Shown here in pieces: positions 762 to 5,558 of a stretch of 5,558 nt of DNA. The stretch comes from a virus. Its lineage: Duplodnaviria > Heunggongvirae > Uroviricota > Caudoviricetes. The notes under the pieces were generated by a model. That model had not been told where the DNA came from. It saw only the letters and a list, made by a program, of their open reading frames with translations, and did not search any database. Each line of letters starts with the position of its first letter. Position 1 is the stretch's first letter. Made by a program: the position numbers and the translations under genes. The stretch lies in IMG/VR virus record IMGVR_UViG_2671180921_000028, positions 1 to 5,558 of that record. The stretch is one strand, 5' to 3'.

Positions 762-963
762 CAGGGAGCTTGTCGATGCCGCGATTAAGCTTGCTGGTGA
801 TTTTTATTCAATGATGGGGTACGCGCATCGCCCTGGATTCAAATATTGGGAATCACCGCATCCGCAAGAGCAACTGGTATTTCAAATGGCCTGCCGTGCT
901 TTTGAGGTTATTCGCGGTTCTGATGTGATGGACGCCGTTGCCGACTTGGAGGATGAAGAGTGA
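739..963 (+). CDS. Small acidic hypothetical phage protein
   Basis: 74-aa ORF with GTG start at 739 preceded by GGAGG (728-732) within the same 18-bp junction sequence as at 475-492. Alternative ATG at 754 has a weaker RBS. Stop TGA 961-963 overlaps the next GTG start. Confidence 0.45.
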   Translation: MSGKRMTNRELVDAAIKLAGDFYSMMGYAHRPGFKYWESPHPQEQLVFQMACRAFEVIRGSDVMDAVADLEDEE

Positions 964-1391
964 ACAAGATTGACTATCAGGCACTGCGTGAGGCGGCAGT
1001 AGCAATTGAAACAGTAGCAATTGAAACAGTAGCAACACCTCAAAAATTGCTGGCATTTCGTATGAAAGTCACACCTCAGGTTGTGCTGGCTCTACTGGAT
1101 GAACGGGAAAGAAACCAGCAATACATCAAACGACGCGACCAGGAGAACGAGGAGATTGCGCTTACGGTTGGGAAGCTGCGTGTTGAGCTTGAGGCAGAAA
1201 AACAGCGGGCAAAGGATCTATTTATGGAAAATGCTCGGCTTAAGTCAGGTGTAGCCGGTCTGATACACCTCGGTATTCGATATGCAGATGTTGAGGTCAT
1301 GAGAATTGCTGGAGATGCCCAGCTTTCTACCCCATTCACTGACAGCATCATAAACAGCATTGCAACAGGCATTCGCATCAAAGGAGAGTGA
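960..1391 (+). CDS. Ead/Ea22-like coiled-coil protein (putative)
   Basis: 143-aa ORF with GTG start overlapping the upstream stop. N-terminal DYQALREAA motif and a central charged coiled-coil (LRVELEAEKQRAKDL) resemble the lambdoid Ea22-like family as recalled from memory. Contains the in-frame tandem repeat. Confidence 0.45.
   Translation: MNKIDYQALREAAVAIETVAIETVATPQKLLAFRMKVTPQVVLALLDERERNQQYIKRRDQENEEIALTVGKLRVELEAEKQRAKDLFMENARLKSGVAGLIHLGIRYADVEVMRIAGDAQLSTPFTDSIINSIATGIRIKGE
998..1038 (+). repeat. In-frame 15-bp tandem repeat (cagtagcaattgaaa x2 plus an 11-nt partial copy) encoding VAIET-VAIET-VAT
   Basis: Two exact 15-nt units at 998-1012 and 1013-1027, then a partial unit at 1028-1038, all inside the 960-1391 CDS. 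Confidence 0.85.
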
Positions 1392-1392
1392 G

Positions 1393-2148
1393 ATGATTCA
1401 CTATCACGGTGGGCCTATTACTCCTGATACGTGCGCAATGAGAGCATGGAAAGGGCGACATGCGTTTATCAGTTTTGCGCATTCAGGCCAGATCAATCTC
1501 GCGGCTGAATACTGTCAGTCGTTCGCGCTGGACAACGGTGCATTCACCGCCTGGAAAGCAACTGGCAAAAACAAAATCGACTGGAGCGATTACTACGAGT
1601 TTGTTGCTCGCTGGAAGAATCACCCAGGATTCGATTTTGCCATTATCCCGGATGTTATTGATGGCGGAGAGGAGGAAAATGATGCGCTTCTGAATGAGTG
1701 GCCTCACGGAAAACTAGTTGGCGTTCCAGTGTGGCACATGAATGAAAGTGACGAGCGATTTATTCATTTGTGCAATGAGTTTCCGCGAGTGGCTATCGGT
1801 AGTTGTGGCGACTATGACGTAAAGCGCCCAACTCTTGCGGTAGCCAGAATGAAAGACCTGATTCGTCACATTGTTGATGAGCATGGTCAGCCGGTTACGA
1901 AACTACATGGATTGCGCATGTTAAATCCGCTGATATTCACAAAATTACCCTTAGCCAGCGCAGATAGTACGAACGTCGCTCGAAACATCGGTATTGATAA
2001 AGCCTGGTCTGGGGCTTGTGCACCTGCAAGTAAAGAGACACGCGCAGCATTAATGGTAGAACGGATTGAGGCACACAATAGCCCTGGTTCTCTTGCGTAT
2101 TGTGAACAACGCGACCGCTTTGAAATGCAATTGCAACTGGCAGTTTAA
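1393..2148 (+). CDS. tRNA-guanine transglycosylase (TGT)-fold protein, DpdA-like putative DNA 7-deazaguanine transglycosylase
   Basis: ATG at 1393 with AAGGAG (1381-1386, spacing 6), immediately after the upstream stop (1389-1391); preferred over the TTG at 1360. Four motifs match bacterial TGT in the same order: LDNGAF (D47) vs TDSGGFQ, FAIIPD (D87) vs IVMIFDE, AIGSCGD vs YAVGGLA, and ADSTNVARNIG (D191) vs FDCVMPTRNARNG. The C-terminal CxCxxC...H zinc subdomain is absent. Alignment done by eye from memory. Confidence 0.5.
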   Translation: MIHYHGGPITPDTCAMRAWKGRHAFISFAHSGQINLAAEYCQSFALDNGAFTAWKATGKNKIDWSDYYEFVARWKNHPGFDFAIIPDVIDGGEEENDALLNEWPHGKLVGVPVWHMNESDERFIHLCNEFPRVAIGSCGDYDVKRPTLAVARMKDLIRHIVDEHGQPVTKLHGLRMLNPLIFTKLPLASADSTNVARNIGIDKAWSGACAPASKETRAALMVERIEAHNSPGSLAYCEQRDRFEMQLQLAV

Positions 2149-2158
2149 GGACTAACAA

Positions 2159-2722
2159 ATGACCACTATAACCAAAGAGCGACTACTGACAATCAAGCAG
2201 TGGCGCGAAACATACGGACCTGGTAGCAACGTTGTACTGCCAGCAGAAGAAGCGGAAGAACTGGCACGGATTGCGTTAGCCTCACTGGAAGTCGAGCCTG
2301 TAAGCCAAACTTACAACTTGCCAGAATTAATCGAAGGCATGGAAGTTTCCATTGATGTAAGTACTTGTGATGCTGATTTAGGTAATCGCTATTTCGGCAC
2401 CGTCACCGAGGCGTTAGAACTTGATACTGCCAAGAATGGTTACATCCTCCTGGTTCAGGACGCAGAGCCAAACTTCGATATAAATGGCAACTCTCCGGTA
2501 ACTCCGGATGGTTGGATAAGCTGTAGTGAGCGAATGCCAAACGATAAACAGTATGTTTGGTGTTGGGGGAAGTCTTACGGCTGGACTGAGTGCGATACCT
2601 TCGAAGGGTATTACGATTGGTCGAGAAACAAATGGTGGGCAATTACTGACGATGGGGAAGAACCGGCATCGAAAGTAACCCACTGGATGACGCTACCGGA
2701 GCCACCGCAGGAGGTGAAGTGA
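2159..2722 (+). CDS. DUF551-domain phage protein
   Basis: 187-aa ORF with ATG 2159 and AAGGA 7 nt upstream. The Trp-rich C-terminus (WISCSERMP ... KVTHWMTLPEPP) is typical of DUF551 proteins in lambdoid early regions. Confidence 0.65.
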   Translation: MTTITKERLLTIKQWRETYGPGSNVVLPAEEAEELARIALASLEVEPVSQTYNLPELIEGMEVSIDVSTCDADLGNRYFGTVTEALELDTAKNGYILLVQDAEPNFDINGNSPVTPDGWISCSERMPNDKQYVWCWGKSYGWTECDTFEGYYDWSRNKWWAITDDGEEPASKVTHWMTLPEPPQEVK

Positions 2723-3006
2723 TGGACTCCTTCGCGAAATATACGATTATTGACTGGGTAGCCTTCCTTCAGTTTTTGCTCATCTGGTTTTATATGGCTT
2801 ACAGGAGTGGACAGTGGATTGTCAGTGTAGCCTGTAGCAAGGGATGGCGTTGGTGGAACCGAAAGAATAAAAAAGCGCTGGCCTTGGATTCGTTTTACGA
2901 AGCATTCAATCTTAACAGCCTTCAGCCTGGTTCTGTCGTTGTAGTCACCACTCAAAGCGGCATGACGATACAAATTCACAAGCCAAAGGAGGAAGGTCGT
3001 GGCTAA
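2722..3006 (+). CDS. Small putative single-pass membrane protein
   Basis: ATG 2722 (or GTG 2719) with GGAGG at 2710-2714, overlapping the upstream stop (2720-2722). Hydrophobic N-terminal segment YTIIDWVAFLQFLLIWFYMAY followed by a basic stretch. Confidence 0.5.
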   Translation: MDSFAKYTIIDWVAFLQFLLIWFYMAYRSGQWIVSVACSKGWRWWNRKNKKALALDSFYEAFNLNSLQPGSVVVVTTQSGMTIQIHKPKEEGRG

Positions 3007-3283
3007 CCTGCAACTTGCCGTTAAAGGTGAATACTTCGATGCCATGATTCGAGGAGAGAAAACGGAAGAGTATCGCCTGTGTAATGACTACTGGAATAAG
3101 CGAATTATGTTCCGGGAGTATGACCGCCTGATTATCACAAAGGGATATCCTAAGCGTGACGATTCCAGCCGCAGAATTGACGTTCCGTATGGCGGATATG
3201 AAATCAAGACAATCACACACCCGCACTTCGGCGATAAACCGGTAAAGGTTTACGCGATAAAGGTAAATATCGGCAATGAATAA
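2999..3283 (+). CDS. ASCH-like (PUA-fold, DUF3850/YqfB-like) protein
   Basis: GTG start 2999 with AAGGAGG (2986-2992), overlapping the upstream stop. N-terminal KGEYFDAMIRGEKTEEYR matches the ASCH signature pattern (F..a..G.KT.e.R) recalled from YqfB and DUF3850 proteins. Confidence 0.5.
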   Translation: MANLQLAVKGEYFDAMIRGEKTEEYRLCNDYWNKRIMFREYDRLIITKGYPKRDDSSRRIDVPYGGYEIKTITHPHFGDKPVKVYAIKVNIGNE

Positions 3284-3287
3284 CAAT

Positions 3288-3342
3288 CCTCGCACTCGCG
3301 GGGATTTCTTTTATCTGAACTCGCTACGGCGAGTTTTGTTTT
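3288..3342 (+). terminator. Tandem rho-independent terminator hairpins closing the accessory operon
   Basis: Hairpin 1: CCTCGC-actc-GCGGGG (3288-3303, one G-U pair) followed by ATTTCTTTT. Hairpin 2: AACTCGC-tacg-GCGAGTT (3318-3335) followed by TTTGTTTT. Confidence 0.6.
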
Positions 3343-3355
3343 ATGGAGATGATAA

Positions 3356-3523
3356 ATGCACTTCCGAGTCACAGGTGAATGGAATGGAGAACCATTCAAC
3401 AGAGTTATCGAAGCAGAGGACATCAACGACTGCTATGACCACTGGATGCTATGGGCGCAGATAGCACATGCAGACATAACCAATATTCGAATTGAAGAAC
3501 TGAAAGAACACCAAGCCGCCTGA
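3356..3523 (+). CDS. Unlisted small ORF (55 aa, MHFRVTGEWNGEPFNRVIEAEDINDCYDHWMLWAQIAHADITNIRIEELKEHQAA)
   Basis: ATG 3356 with GGAG (3345-3348, spacing 7), stop TGA 3521-3523. Below the track length cut-off. Sits between the terminators and torI. No family recognised. Confidence 0.4.
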   Translation: MHFRVTGEWNGEPFNRVIEAEDINDCYDHWMLWAQIAHADITNIRIEELKEHQAA

Positions 3524-3535
3524 TGGTGGTTTTTT
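3516..3535 (+). terminator. Weak putative intrinsic terminator
   Basis: CCGCC-tgat-GGTGG (5 bp stem with one G-U pair) followed by TTTTTTATT. Overlaps the stop codon of the 55-aa ORF. Confidence 0.3.
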
Positions 3536-3545
3536 ATTGCCTGAT

Positions 3546-3561
3546 TTGCAGGTTCGATTCC
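3546..3561 (+). other. tRNA-like fragment (T-stem/T-loop, TTGCAGGTTCGATTCC) just upstream of torI
   Basis: Contains the canonical T-arm motif GGTTCGATTCC. From memory it is identical to the argW segment immediately 5' of the att core. No acceptor or anticodon arms are present, so it is not a tRNA gene. Confidence 0.5.
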
Positions 3562-3580
3562 CTATTCGGAGATAGCACTC

Positions 3581-3781
3581 ATGCAACACGAACTACAGCC
3601 TGATTCACTGGTTGATTTGAAATTCATCATGGCCGATACTGGCTTCGGTAAAACCTTCATCTATGACCGGATTAAGTCCGGGGACCTGCCTAAAGCCAAA
3701 GTTATCCACGGGCGAGCAAGATGGTTATATCGTGACCATTGTGAATTCAAAAATAAGCTCTTAAGCCGCGCCAATGGGTAA
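3581..3781 (+). CDS. torI: TorI, excisionase-like recombination directionality factor and Tor response-regulator inhibitor
   Basis: 66-aa ORF recognised as E. coli TorI/AlpA-Xis-type winged-helix protein, with GGAG RBS at 3568-3571. Lies at the att-proximal end of the prophage, as in KplE1. Confidence 0.85.
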   Translation: MQHELQPDSLVDLKFIMADTGFGKTFIYDRIKSGDLPKAKVIHGRARWLYRDHCEFKNKLLSRANG

Positions 3782-3797
3782 AATAGCGGGTAAAATA
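3776..3797 (+). repeat. Direct repeat GGGTAAAATA-gc-GGGTAAAATA overlapping the torI stop codon
   Basis: Two exact 10-nt copies at 3776-3785 and 3788-3797, followed by an A/T-rich tract. Candidate protein-binding sites in the attR arm. Confidence 0.6.
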
Positions 3798-3853
3798 TTT
3801 TTCACATCTAAAAAACACCATTCCAATCAATCCCCTGCCGCTTCAAGTAGATG

Positions 3854-3869
3854 CCTGCAGGGGACACCA
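3854..3869 (+). other. attR core: 16-nt copy of the 3' end of tRNA-Arg(CCU) argW (CCTGCAGGGGACACCA)
   Basis: Matches the 3' T-stem, acceptor 3' strand, discriminator and CCA of argW as recalled. Upstream sequence diverges from the tRNA. Flanked by the inverted repeat CCCCTGC (3832-3838) / GCAGGGG (3857-3863). Confidence 0.7.
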
Positions 3870-4310: not shown

Positions 4311-5558
4311 CTATATTGCTGAAGGTACAGGCGTTTCCATAACTATTTGCTCGCGTTTTTTACTCAAGAAGAAAATGCCAAATAGCAACATCAGGCAGAC
4401 AATACCCGAAATTGCGAAGAAAACTGTCTGGTAGCCTGCGTGGTCAAAGAGTATCCCAGTCGGCGTTGAAAGCAGCACAATCCCAAGCGAACTGGCAATT
4501 TGAAAACCAATCAGAAAGATCGTCGACGACAGGCGCTTATCAAAGTTTGCCACGCTGTATTTGAAGACGGATATGACACAAAGTGGAACCTCAATGGCAT
4601 GTAACAACTTCACTAATGAAATAATCCAGGGGTTAACGAACAGCGCGCAGGAAAGGATACGCAACGCCATAATCACAACTCCGATAAGTAATGCATTTTT
4701 TGGCCCTACCCGATTCACAAAGAAAGGAATAATCGCCATGCACAGCGCTTCGAGTACCACCTGGAATGAGTTGAGATAACCATACAGGCGCGTTCCTACA
4801 TCGTGTGATTCGAATAAACCTGCATAAAAGACAGGAAAAAGTTGTTGATCAAAAATGTTATAGAAAGACCACGTCCCCACAATAAATATGACGAAAACCC
4901 AGAAGTTTCGATCCTTGAAAACTGCGATAAAATCCTCTTTTTTTACCCCTCCCGCATCTGCCGCTACGCACTGGTGATCCTTATCTTTAAAACGCATGTT
5001 GATCATCATAAATACAGCGCCAAATAGCGAGACCAACCAGAAGTTGATATGGGGACTGATACTAAAAAATATGCCGGCAAAGAACGCGCCAATAGCATAG
5101 CCAAAAGATCCCCAGGCGCGCGCTGTTCCATATTCGAAATGAAAATTTCGCGCCATTTTTTCGGTGAAGCTATCAAGCAAACCGCATCCCGCCAGATACC
5201 CCAAGCCAAAAAATAGCGCCCCCAGAATTAGACCTACAGAAAAATTGCTTTGCAGTAACGGTTCATAAACGTAAATCATAAACGGTCCGGTCAAGACCAG
5301 GATGAAACTCATACACCAGATGAGCGGTTTCTTCAGACCGAGTTTATCCTGAACGATGCCGTAGAACATCATAAATAGAATGCTGGTAAACTGGTTGACC
5401 GAATAAAGTGTACCTAATTCCGTCCCTGTCAACCCTAGATGTCCTTTCAGCCAAATAGCGTATAACGACCACCACAGCGACCAGGAAATAAAAAAGAGAA
5501 ATGAGTAACTGGATGCAAAACGATAGTACGCATTTCTGAATGGAATATTCAGTGCCAT
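4311..5558 (-). CDS. cscB: Sucrose:H+ symporter CscB (oligosaccharide:H+ symporter family of MFS)
   Basis: 415-aa ORF with N-terminus MALNIPFRNAYYRFASSYSFLFF, recognised as CscB. Clear LacY-family motifs (DKLGLKK, FEYGTARAWG, YNIFDQQ, NRVGPKNALL, FKYSVANFDKR). Start codon is the last 3 nt of the window; stop TAG at 4311-4313. Confidence 0.9.
   Translation of the reverse strand: MALNIPFRNAYYRFASSYSFLFFISWSLWWSLYAIWLKGHLGLTGTELGTLYSVNQFTSILFMMFYGIVQDKLGLKKPLIWCMSFILVLTGPFMIYVYEPLLQSNFSVGLILGALFFGLGYLAGCGLLDSFTEKMARNFHFEYGTARAWGSFGYAIGAFFAGIFFSISPHINFWLVSLFGAVFMMINMRFKDKDHQCVAADAGGVKKEDFIAVFKDRNFWVFVIFIVGTWSFYNIFDQQLFPVFYAGLFESHDVGTRLYGYLNSFQVVLEALCMAIIPFFVNRVGPKNALLIGVVIMALRILSCALFVNPWIISLVKLLHAIEVPLCVISVFKYSVANFDKRLSSTIFLIGFQIASSLGIVLLSTPTGILFDHAGYQTVFFAISGIVCLMLLFGIFFLSKKREQIVMETPVPSAI

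Follow-up and report, generated by a model that had tools for sequence, protein, structure and literature searches.

Three genes downstream of a DpdA-like gene in a P22-like E. coli prophage are probably independently shuffled accessory genes of the exo-xis region

The three tightly packed plus-strand genes at positions 2159 to 3283 of the window (the whole 5,558-nucleotide stretch of DNA analyzed here) are probably separate accessory genes that have been shuffled independently of one another in the mosaic exo-xis or "ea" region of a P22-like prophage, and that have no functional tie to the DpdA-like gene preceding them. Each is a real, conserved coding unit, and each of them, as well as several pieces of the DUF551 gene, is a separate recombination module whose spread among phages is particular to it. 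The ORF list places the genes exactly at these coordinates (Table 1), and their identification in a sequence-only reading as encoding a DUF551 protein, a small membrane protein and an ASCH-like protein is borne out by Pfam (DUF551 and DUF4752), by phrog_625 and by the fold of the third product.

Table 1. Positions of features in the window
Feature	Position	Strand	Evidence or remark
Ead/Ea22-like gene	960..1391	+	Pfam Ead_Ea22, E 6.8e-22; gene order as in BTP1
DpdA-like gene (singleton phage DNA-guanine transglycosylase homologue)	1393..2148 (ATG start)	+	phrog_887 "queuine tRNA-ribosyltransferase," E 2e-102
Chimeric DUF551 ORF, 187 aa	2159..2722	+	Pfam DUF551 (PF04448), E 4e-16
DUF4752 gene, 94-95 aa	2722..3006 (ATG; alternative GTG at 2719)	+	Pfam DUF4752 (PF15944), E 3.9e-35
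ASCH module boundary	2985..3006	+	Shine-Dalgarno GGAGG, GTG start, and TAA in ASCH codons 2-3 that ends the upstream gene
Minimal stand-alone ASCH (PUA-like) protein, 94 aa	2999..3283 (GTG start)	+	motif G19-x-K21-x-x-E24-x-R26
Two tandem terminator-like hairpins, T-rich tails	3285..3346	+	intergenic spacer 3' of ASCH
Conserved small gene, 55 aa	3356..3523	+	phrog_676, E 1e-39
Terminator-like hairpin	3513-3532	+	directly after the 55-aa phrog_676 gene
TorI excisionase (recombination directionality factor)	3581..3781	+	100% identical to K-12 CPS-53/KplE1 TorI
Stretch in common with K-12 CPS-53 (its right end), reaching the argW-fragment (pawZ) attR	3531..3869	+	blastn, 97.3% identity, NC_000913.3 2476260-2476598
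Oligosaccharide MFS transporter gene (chromosomal; flanks the prophage)	4311..5558	-	RefSeq annotation under matches, ORF list

This KplE1/CPS-53-type prophage is integrated at argW in E. coli and ends near position 3869. The three genes lie at this end, just upstream of the TorI excisionase, in a mosaic exo-xis/ea stretch, the final portion of the early-left operon ahead of that gene. An Ead/Ea22-like gene, which marks this accessory region, stands on one side of them and torI (xis) on the other, both on the same strand, and the maps of BTP1 and HK106 agree with this placement. The closest known systems are the exo-xis regions of lambdoid and P22-like phages (ea22-orf61-orf63-orf60a-orf73 in lambda; eaA-eaE in P22 and BTP1), which are placed alike, with the recombination genes on one side and xis/int on the other, and likewise combine an Ead/Ea22-like gene, small, packed genes on one strand, extreme mosaicism and the portable DUF551 domain (PMC10834534). 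Genes of this region are early, pL-driven, nonessential and mosaic (PMC10834534, PMC4776307). The present set (DpdA-like, chimeric DUF551, DUF4752 and ASCH) nevertheless differs from the conserved lambda cassette, and its exact combination was found in 0 of 5,426 complete E. coli genomes. If lambda and P22 are a guide, infection or induction would bring cotranscription of these genes with the rest of the operon, driven by the early-left promoter and subject to antitermination; each may act alone as a nonessential host-takeover or fitness factor, a role and timing that we infer.

K-12 CPS-53/KplE1 (yfdS-yfdT-torI) shares the integration site and the TorI sequence, and its YfdS carries DUF551 (PMC4776307). 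At the DNA level, however, sharing is limited to TorI, attR and the spacer that immediately precedes torI, and the K-12 site is without the DpdA-like, DUF4752 and ASCH genes. We considered YfdS and YfdT as orthologues of window genes and rejected them; only short N-terminal modules are alike. A PADLOC "mad1" match of TorI was taken to be HTH similarity.

The structure is mosaic. At least 80% of the window was present together in none of the 5,426 complete E. coli genomes, while pieces of it occurred in 4,928. The depth profile is stepwise, with breakpoints at gene boundaries and also inside the DUF551 ORF (steps at approximately 2150, 2300, 2480 to 2540 and 2700). This ORF is accordingly divisible into an N-terminal module (approximately 2159 to 2310), a rare middle, a widely shared 60-nucleotide joint (2480 to 2540) and the C-terminal DUF551 domain. 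The last is complete: residues 118 to 184 align with positions 1 to 68 of the 68-residue profile at 60 bits (gathering cutoff, 22), while residues 1 to 51 match separate PHROGs (3323 and 660). The protein would thus use a portable C-terminal domain that YfdS and an Ea22 variant also carry. Viral contigs displayed many different gene orders, and the same modules turned up in a nin-type region next to terminase and on a P1-like phage-plasmid. The fetched loci included no gap-free, full-length allele of this mosaic ORF, and the dN/dS test below covers the other two genes; a PDB sequence search with the DUF551 protein returned nothing meaningful. None of the three proteins had an NCBIfam match or a significant PADLOC match.

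Given such a structure, it could be argued that one or more of the ORFs are what is left of a cryptic prophage and are decaying or no longer functional. CPS-53, which occupies this site in K-12, is cryptic; the chimeric DUF551 ORF has, by the depth profile, a rare C-terminal variant; and RefSeq labels some DUF551/DUF550 fragments at related loci as pseudogenes. We nevertheless regard decay as extremely improbable: all three ORFs are intact and have good ribosome-binding sites, their family matches are strong and full length, and purifying selection is evident for both ASCH (dN/dS of 0.07, 81 alleles) and DUF4752 (0.18, 19 alleles).

The second gene encodes a DUF4752 protein that covers positions 2 to 84 of the 84-position profile at 120.2 bits (gathering threshold, 27). 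Residues 8 to 26 form a hydrophobic segment (Kyte-Doolittle, 19-residue window, 1.69) that is retained in homologues of 47 to 62% identity and is followed, at residues 28 to 52, by a stretch with seven K/R and no D/E. The AlphaFold model, which is of low confidence (mean pLDDT of 65), has a helix at residues 9 to 45. One helix of about 20 residues, flanking positive charge and conservation are what is expected in silico of a single-pass inner-membrane protein, and we predict such a protein with its N terminus out, its C terminus in and a small C-terminal domain. It would be anchored in the inner membrane through the one N-terminal helix, leaving the small domain in the cytoplasm. With regard to the kil or exclusion role suggested in the sequence-only reading, homology to Kil, SieB, Cor or other exclusion proteins was sought, and no functional match was found in Pfam, NCBIfam or PHROG; PADLOC gave only a nonsignificant match to KwaA (E = 0.013). 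WD40 matches in the PDB sequence search were dismissed, as they contained no individually significant stretch. DUF4752 is also encoded by the known phages ST104 and HK106, and our literature search found no paper on it. The genes annotated as kil in BTP1 and HK106 are found at another place in the operon.

The third gene encodes a small protein whose ASCH, or PUA-like, fold had been named beforehand as the point to check, and this fold is confirmed. The gathering threshold of Pfam ASCH (PF04266) was missed (15.7 versus 21.2 bits; E = 0.026), while phrog_625 was matched at an E value of 1e-50, and close homologues carry the RefSeq name "ASCH domain-containing protein." Of 120 relatives, only 11 matched Pfam ASCH at an E value of <0.01, and 3 matched the related DUF3850; the phage protein belongs to a divergent subfamily that the Pfam model covers poorly. 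The sequence GxKxxExR was reportedly described by Iyer et al. in 2006 as the conserved ASCH octapeptide. G19, K21, E24 and R26, which make up this motif in the phage protein, are invariant in 37 close homologues; among the 120 relatives, at 39 to 77% identity, K21 remains invariant and the other three are at least 90% conserved. A conservative octapeptide in the ASCH domain has likewise been noted elsewhere (PMC9599836). Together with W32, R35, Y50 and H74, the invariant K21 and near-invariant E24 and R26 may form a cleft in which the protein would bind RNA, DNA or a nucleoside ligand.

A point of comparison is E. coli YqfB, a characterized small ASCH enzyme that acts as an N4-acetylcytidine amidohydrolase and whose catalytic residues are Lys21, Thr24, Arg26 and Glu74 (PMC9599836). 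When residues 12 to 26 of the two proteins are set against each other by hhalign, K21 and R26 are kept, but the catalytic Thr24, which serves YqfB as nucleophile, is replaced by the invariant Glu24 of the canonical motif. A counterpart of Glu74 cannot be assigned, and the two sequences are barely alike overall (hhalign probability, 0.1%). The analogy with YqfB drawn in the sequence-only reading is thus not upheld at the catalytic position, and the phage protein does not appear to be a YqfB-type amidohydrolase. The minimal stand-alone ASCH proteins of Enterococcus faecalis (NP_814290, "activating signal cointegrator"; PDB 3iuw) and Pyrococcus horikoshii (PH0355; PDB 2z0t) are 15 to 19% identical to it and are themselves functionally uncharacterized. 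A search of Protein Data Bank sequences with the ASCH profile yielded nothing meaningful. Domain fusions were sought in ten longer relatives, and the only clear one was an Ead/Ea22-ASCH chimera, a mosaic fusion that offers no functional clue.

The family is widespread. At 50% identity it falls into about 1,277 clusters; it is present in 1,573 of the 5,426 complete E. coli genomes (29%) and includes members in the known phages 933W, HK022, ST104 and BTP1, with records from virulent Jersey-like Salmonella phages, Stx phages and Ralstonia phages. A profile scan of genome contigs with the 37-sequence alignment recovered 13 loci. The family is very common and strongly constrained, yet uncharacterized.

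As the sequence-only reading had it, the ORFs are packed downstream of the DpdA-like gene with overlapping stop and start codons. Ten nucleotides separate the DpdA-like stop from the DUF551 ATG, the stop codon of DUF551 and the start codon of DUF4752 overlap (TGATG/GTGA), and the DUF4752 and ASCH genes share 8 nucleotides. What this packing does not sustain is the view that translational coupling signals a functional relationship. The GGAGG...GTGGCTAAC junction recurs in other genomes after DUF4752, EaA/DUF550 and MazG-like genes, and 55 alignments begin at positions 2990 to 2999. The ASCH module brings with it its own ribosome-binding site, its GTG start and a TAA stop for whichever gene happens to lie upstream, and the apparent coupling is therefore generic. 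The hairpin segment is conserved after ASCH in BTP1 and E. coli 23AR1217 and is common to 59 of 80 TorI-anchored loci. Because such junction sequences are recombination joints, packing and overlaps in the exo-xis/ea region are uninformative about function. All three families are already present in RefSeq annotation and in well-known phages, and the analysis is of small value as discovery; its main value is negative and cautionary, in that neither the packing of this region nor its stop/start overlaps are a sign of a functional unit.

The upstream neighbor is a homologue of experimentally supported phage DpdA proteins. Its product is 36% identical to that of the DpdA-like gene of Salmonella phage 7-11 (tblastn, E = 5e-25) and matches DpdA of Pseudomonas phage Iggy (tblastn, E = 4e-4; PMC6884629, PMC10484667); there was no match in Pfam (including TGT), NCBIfam or PDB sequences. 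Hutinet et al. classed the 7-11 locus as a singleton DpdA, and phage 7-11, which has DpdA only, carries dADG, with no identified enzyme for converting preQ0 to ADG (PMC6884629). Records of DpdA-like genes come chiefly from Vibrio and Pseudomonas phages. Singleton genes of this type in E. coli prophages, found in 204 of the 5,426 complete genomes (3.8%), have no known product.

The sequence-only reading saw in this arrangement a cassette in which the DpdA-like protein writes a modified base that the ASCH protein reads or erases as a deazaguanine, perhaps with the membrane protein as a further part, or else an anti-defense module. Published work bears out its general premise (PMC7641849, PMC9599836), namely that modified bases can be bound or processed by ASCH/PUA domains. 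In favor of the cassette, the genes are neighbors on one strand whose stops and starts overlap; BTP1 and 20 E. coli records pair the two within 2 kb; and phage 7-11, with dADG but only a DpdA, has no known enzyme for making it from preQ0. Co-occurrence across related prophages, on which the proposal depended, is absent, however. Among TorI-anchored viral contigs, DpdA-like and ASCH genes are independent (odds ratio of 1.04, P = 1, in samples that comprise the best 80 loci per scan, many of them near-identical E. coli isolates, and with statistics that ignore phylogeny). ASCH lies within 1.9 kb in only 20 of the 204 DpdA-positive E. coli records (about 10%), compared with its occurrence in 1,573 genomes, and the genes between the two vary from genome to genome. 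It is downstream in 7 of 65 DpdA-anchored loci. The background frequency of ASCH in the ea region is about 16%. Of 12 diverse DpdA-like phages, BTP1 alone has this ASCH family, and none of its members was found within 6 kb of the 7-11 DpdA-like gene. Conversely, a DpdA-like gene is present at none of the 12 ASCH loci from other species that were informative, ASCH is common in the virulent Jersey-like and Stx phages, and the two genes differ in host spectrum. Adjacency of the two genes is no commoner than expected by chance. With the coupling being a property of the ASCH module, we consider such a cassette very improbable and treat the DpdA-like gene as a context gene that belongs to no cassette with the genes downstream.

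A broader version of this idea would have the ASCH protein work with nucleotide- or DNA-modifying genes of the ea region in general rather than with DpdA specifically, reading or trimming the noncanonical base or nucleotide of whichever module adjoins it. Nucleotide-related genes, such as those for a MazG-like dATP/dGTP pyrophosphohydrolase or EaA/DUF550, often lie upstream of ASCH; a SAM-dependent methyltransferase gene lies 2.5 kb upstream of it on the P1-like plasmid; and one BFVD structural neighbor is labeled "restriction alleviation protein." The distant Pseudomonas phage Epa33 has a block with a DpdA-like gene, a C5 methylase and, 2.5 kb from the DpdA-like gene, an ASCH-domain protein. 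However, the latter is unrelated, being of a different ASCH family that our family HMM missed; the gene upstream of ASCH is equally often DUF4752, DUF551 or a small ORF of no known function; and the ea region is so dense with nucleotide-related genes that chance proximity is to be expected. We therefore find general partnership unlikely. One speculative extension, for which we would give very long odds, is that the stand-alone ASCH family is a phage reader or hydrolase of noncanonical bases or nucleosides, serving whichever nucleotide-modifying module adjoins it, and that where it is paired with a singleton DpdA (as in the present prophage and BTP1) it tunes or processes the 7-deazaguanine in DNA, for example through the preQ0-to-ADG conversion of 7-11.

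Independently shuffled accessory genes remain our preferred explanation, and a facultative DpdA-like/ASCH interaction is possible within it, since about 10% of DpdA-like genes (that of BTP1 included) have ASCH within 2 kb and the Epa33 case exists. Salmonella phage BTP1, for which a literature search combined with the gene names gave nothing relevant, offers a tractable system for both the ASCH family and singleton DpdA. Its map reads erf-abc-...-ead-DpdA-eaA-ASCH-...-xis-int, and gp23 to gp21 are annotated as queuine tRNA-ribosyltransferase, EaA/DUF550 and ASCH domain protein. The order is like that of the present prophage (ead, DpdA-like, an intervening gene, ASCH and, further on, xis), the DpdA-like and ASCH proteins are 93% and 81% identical, respectively, to ours, and ASCH has the same 8-nucleotide overlap onto the gene upstream. 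In BTP1, however, that gene is eaA (DUF550), whereas in the present prophage DUF551 and DUF4752 stand between the DpdA-like gene and ASCH.

The three genes at 2159-3283 are independent, constrained coding modules, and they lie within the 'ea' or exo-xis accessory region of a P22-like prophage whose right end is the window. We place it there because the nearest phages across the ASCH-to-TorI part are P22-like podophages (phiv205-1, HF4s, Kapi1 and CUS-3), because the right end of the K-12 cryptic prophage CPS-53, up to the argW-fragment attR, matches window 3531-3869, and because the flank is chromosomal. From the Ead/Ea22-like gene through TorI, small genes follow one another in an unbroken series on one strand. 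In lambda and Stx phages, the stretch that separates the recombination genes from xis is called 'exo-xis', and its P22 counterpart 'ea'; it is expressed early from pL, is non-essential and mosaic, and modulates host physiology and the choice between lysis and lysogeny. DUF551 is described as a portable domain, occurring in an Ea22 variant as well as in CPS-53 YfdS (PMC10834534, PMC4776307). The closest published arrangement is that of Salmonella phage BTP1 (ead, a 'queuine tRNA-ribosyltransferase', eaA [DUF550], an ASCH protein, one more gene, xis and int). CPS-53 has in common with the window only TorI, attR and the spacer directly upstream of torI. The stretch is, in short, an ordinary and already annotated part of a mosaic prophage region.

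Features in and around the three-gene stretch (window coordinates)
Feature	Position	Strand	Basis or remark
Ead/Ea22-like gene	960-1391	+	Pfam E 7e-22
DpdA-like gene	1393-2148 (ATG start)	+	phrog_887
DUF551 protein gene	2159-2722	+	Pfam
DUF4752 protein gene	GTG 2719 or ATG 2722, to 3006	+	Pfam
ASCH-like protein gene, 94 aa	2999-3283 (GTG start)	+	phrog_625
Two tandem terminator-like hairpins, T-rich tails	3285-3346		directly 3' of ASCH
55-aa gene	3356-3523	+	
TorI excisionase gene	3581-3781	+	100% identical to CPS-53/KplE1 TorI
Oligosaccharide MFS transporter gene, chromosomal	beyond 3869	-	

A sequence-only reading had assigned a DUF551 protein, a small membrane protein and an ASCH-like protein to this stretch, and both its coordinates and its domain calls agree with the ORFs, Pfam and PHROG. 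DUF551 scores 60 bits against a Pfam cut-off of 22, and DUF4752 scores 120 bits against 27. The tight junctions it described are also present; in order, these are a 10-nt gap (DpdA-like/DUF551), TGATG/GTGA (DUF551/DUF4752) and an 8-nt overlap (DUF4752/ASCH). 'Small membrane protein' is a fair in silico label for the DUF4752 product, in which hydrophobic residues 8-26 (Kyte-Doolittle(19) = 1.69) are followed by seven K/R and zero acidic residues. This hydrophobic segment is retained in homologues down to 47% identity, and AlphaFold predicts a long helix (9-45) at low overall confidence (pLDDT 65). The gene is under purifying selection (dN/dS = 0.18; 19 alleles), and a literature search found no paper mentioning DUF4752.

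No promoter-like sites were found on the + strand between 960 and 3283. Besides the tandem hairpins after ASCH, a third terminator-like hairpin follows the 55-aa gene. The tandem pair is also kept in BTP1 and in E. coli 23AR1217, and the segment is common to 59 of 80 TorI-anchored loci; these hairpins could be terminators that are read through under antitermination, or they could be RNA-processing sites. During infection or induction, the genes would presumably be read through from the early-left promoter. TorI itself also matches the PADLOC model 'mad1' (mads_1; E 7.6e-14), which we take as shared helix-turn-helix similarity, and a defence role was set aside.

The adjacency had been read as a cassette pairing a DpdA-like writer with an ASCH reader or eraser, or as an anti-defence module. 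The observation itself is correct, but its interpretation as a functional cassette is not supported: across five independent samples, co-occurrence of DpdA-like and ASCH genes in related prophages does not rise above background. Among 5,426 complete E. coli genomes, 1,573 carry the ASCH gene and 204 the DpdA-like gene (labeled in RefSeq only as 'hypothetical protein'), and a composite query (DpdA, ASCH and random filler, joining pieces up to 1.9 kb apart) returned just 20 records with both. What lay between them varied: a MazG-like pyrophosphohydrolase, DUF551 plus DUF4752, DUF4752 alone, DUF551 alone, or eaa plus DUF551. In IMG/VR, ASCH was present in 7 of the 65 DpdA-anchored contigs having enough downstream sequence; conversely, a DpdA-like gene lay within 6 kb in 3 of the best 80 ASCH-anchored loci, and of the 76 whose upstream sequence spans 3 kb or more, none had one upstream on the same strand. 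When TorI was used as a neutral neighbour to anchor a 2x2 test, the table (1 / 5 / 10 / 52) gave an odds ratio of 1.04 (p = 1.0), and the ASCH background near TorI (11/68, 16%) was at least as high as the frequency of ASCH next to DpdA (about 10%). Twelve diverse phages whose DpdA-like gene shows 32-93% identity (BTP1, RothD, Athena1, SfI, D105, HK106, 7-11, SEN1, Epa33, Phc, PEAT2 and AH07) were searched with an ASCH-family HMM, which found a member only in BTP1. Similarly, an HMM of 13 DpdA-like proteins found no DpdA-like ORF within 8 kb at 13 other-species ASCH loci, one of which is a 435-bp contig without flanks. Hosts of the DpdA-like phages are mostly Vibrio, Salmonella and Pseudomonas; the ASCH phages include Stx phages (933W), HK022, Ralstonia phages and many virulent Jersey-like Salmonella phages.

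In Pseudomonas phage Epa33 (L249, 5001-8938), a C5 cytosine methylase and a small ORF come after the DpdA-like gene, and beyond them, 2.5 kb from the DpdA-like gene, lies a different and larger ASCH-domain protein (223 aa, ASCH/PmgT-like). The latter belongs to another ASCH family and goes undetected by the HMM of the window family.

The region is a textbook mosaic. In none of the 5,426 complete E. coli genomes does 80% of the window occur in one place, parts of it occur in 4,928, and the best match covers 63% of the 5.6 kb in 8 pieces. The per-position count of matching related loci changes in sharp steps at about 2150, 2300, 2480-2540, 2700, 2990 and 3280, and linkage to DpdA falls with distance (40, 24, 22, 13 and 12 of 50 DpdA-anchored loci in successive 50-nt steps). 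Even the single DUF551 ORF is chimeric, made up of an N-terminal module in common with other proteins (phrog_3323, phrog_660), a rare middle part and a rare C-terminal variant. Within it, the 60 nt at 2480-2540 (residues about 108-127, ...PVTPDGWISCSERMP...) are common to 34-46 of every 80 loci, while both flanks are rare; 83 alignments begin at 2480 and 95 stop at 2530. This resembles a joint favoured by recombination, placed where the DUF551 domain begins.

The ASCH module begins at its own Shine-Dalgarno sequence, and the string GGAGG-N6-GTGGCTAAC stands behind three unrelated genes, DUF4752, EaA/DUF550 and MazG-like (window 2985-3006 and comparison loci L241 6715-6732 and L269 3885-3902). 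The 8-nt overlap recurs in all three cases because a TAA within ASCH codons 2-3 serves as the stop of any upstream gene. The proposed translational coupling is therefore real as an overlap but is a property of the module joint, and it is no evidence of a specific partnership with the neighbours. The same modules also occur beside the terminase of another prophage, in a nin-type region. At that locus (L001, E. coli SCU-125, 4032-5724), the DpdA-like gene, a truncated DUF551, DUF4752 and ASCH lie in a prophage of a different kind, where they follow replication protein P and precede the terminase genes, not beside xis/int.

The PUA-type fold proposed for the ASCH-like protein holds. Its Pfam match is weak and sub-threshold (E 0.026); however, it matches phrog_625 at E 1e-50, and RefSeq calls its close homologues ASCH-domain proteins. 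The best Foldseek matches in the PDB to an AlphaFold model (37-homologue input, pLDDT 80) are all ASCH proteins (3iuw, PH0355, YqfB, ZmASCH and PF0470), with EVE and YTH domains ranking below, and the model also matches viral predicted structures in BFVD labeled ASCH, DUF3850 and activating signal cointegrator. The canonical octapeptide is G19-E-K21-T-E-E24-Y-R26; among 120 relatives (39-77% identity), K21 is invariant, G19, E24 and R26 are nearly so, and W32, R35, G49-Y50-P51, H74 and F77-G78 are also conserved. The gene is under purifying selection (dN/dS = 0.07; 81 alleles). The suggested analogy to YqfB fails: in the hhalign alignment, residues 12-26 pair with residues 12-26 of YqfB, and Thr24, the nucleophile among the YqfB catalytic residues (PMC9599836), is replaced here by an invariant Glu. 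Judged by this alignment, the window protein is not a YqfB-type enzyme.

Each gene would encode an accessory factor acting alone. By analogy to other ASCH proteins, our best guess is that the ASCH protein binds a ligand (RNA, DNA or a nucleoside) in the K21/E24/R26 cleft, with a chemistry that would differ from that of YqfB. The DUF4752 product may be an inner-membrane anchor with a small cytoplasmic domain, and the DUF551 protein may supply a portable interaction domain. What interest remains lies in the ASCH family, which is abundant (1,277 clusters at 50% identity), strongly conserved and uncharacterised, and in the singleton DpdA genes of E. coli prophages. ASCH matches also occur at 98 plasmid places in E. 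coli. One P1-like phage-plasmid (L268, E. coli plasmid p96_1414B-1, 97 kb, with phd/doc and an S24 peptidase) carries an ea-type block in the order ead/Ea22, SAM methyltransferase, ead/Ea22, DUF551, small ORF and ASCH. A 168-aa viral 'Restriction alleviation protein' (BFVD A0A8S5UN54) aligns with the ASCH model across 93 columns (TM 0.73, 27% identity) and may be an ASCH fusion.

The upstream gene is DpdA-like by homology. It matches phrog_887 at E 2e-102 and, by tblastn, the Salmonella phage 7-11 locus (36% identity, E 5e-25) and the Pseudomonas phage Iggy DpdA, a protein that has been studied by experiment (E 4e-4); there was no match in Pfam, NCBIfam or PDB sequences. The window holds no preQ0 pathway genes beside it. 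Hutinet et al. described this very class, namely phages with DpdA alone, without the preQ0 pathway; these singletons group by clade of bacterial host, with the gamma-Proteobacteria as one cluster, and dADG makes up only about 0.02% in phage 7-11 DNA (PMC6884629). In Pectobacterium phage PEAT2, the DpdA-like homologue adjoins an ORF with a YhhQ domain (preQ0 transporter-like).
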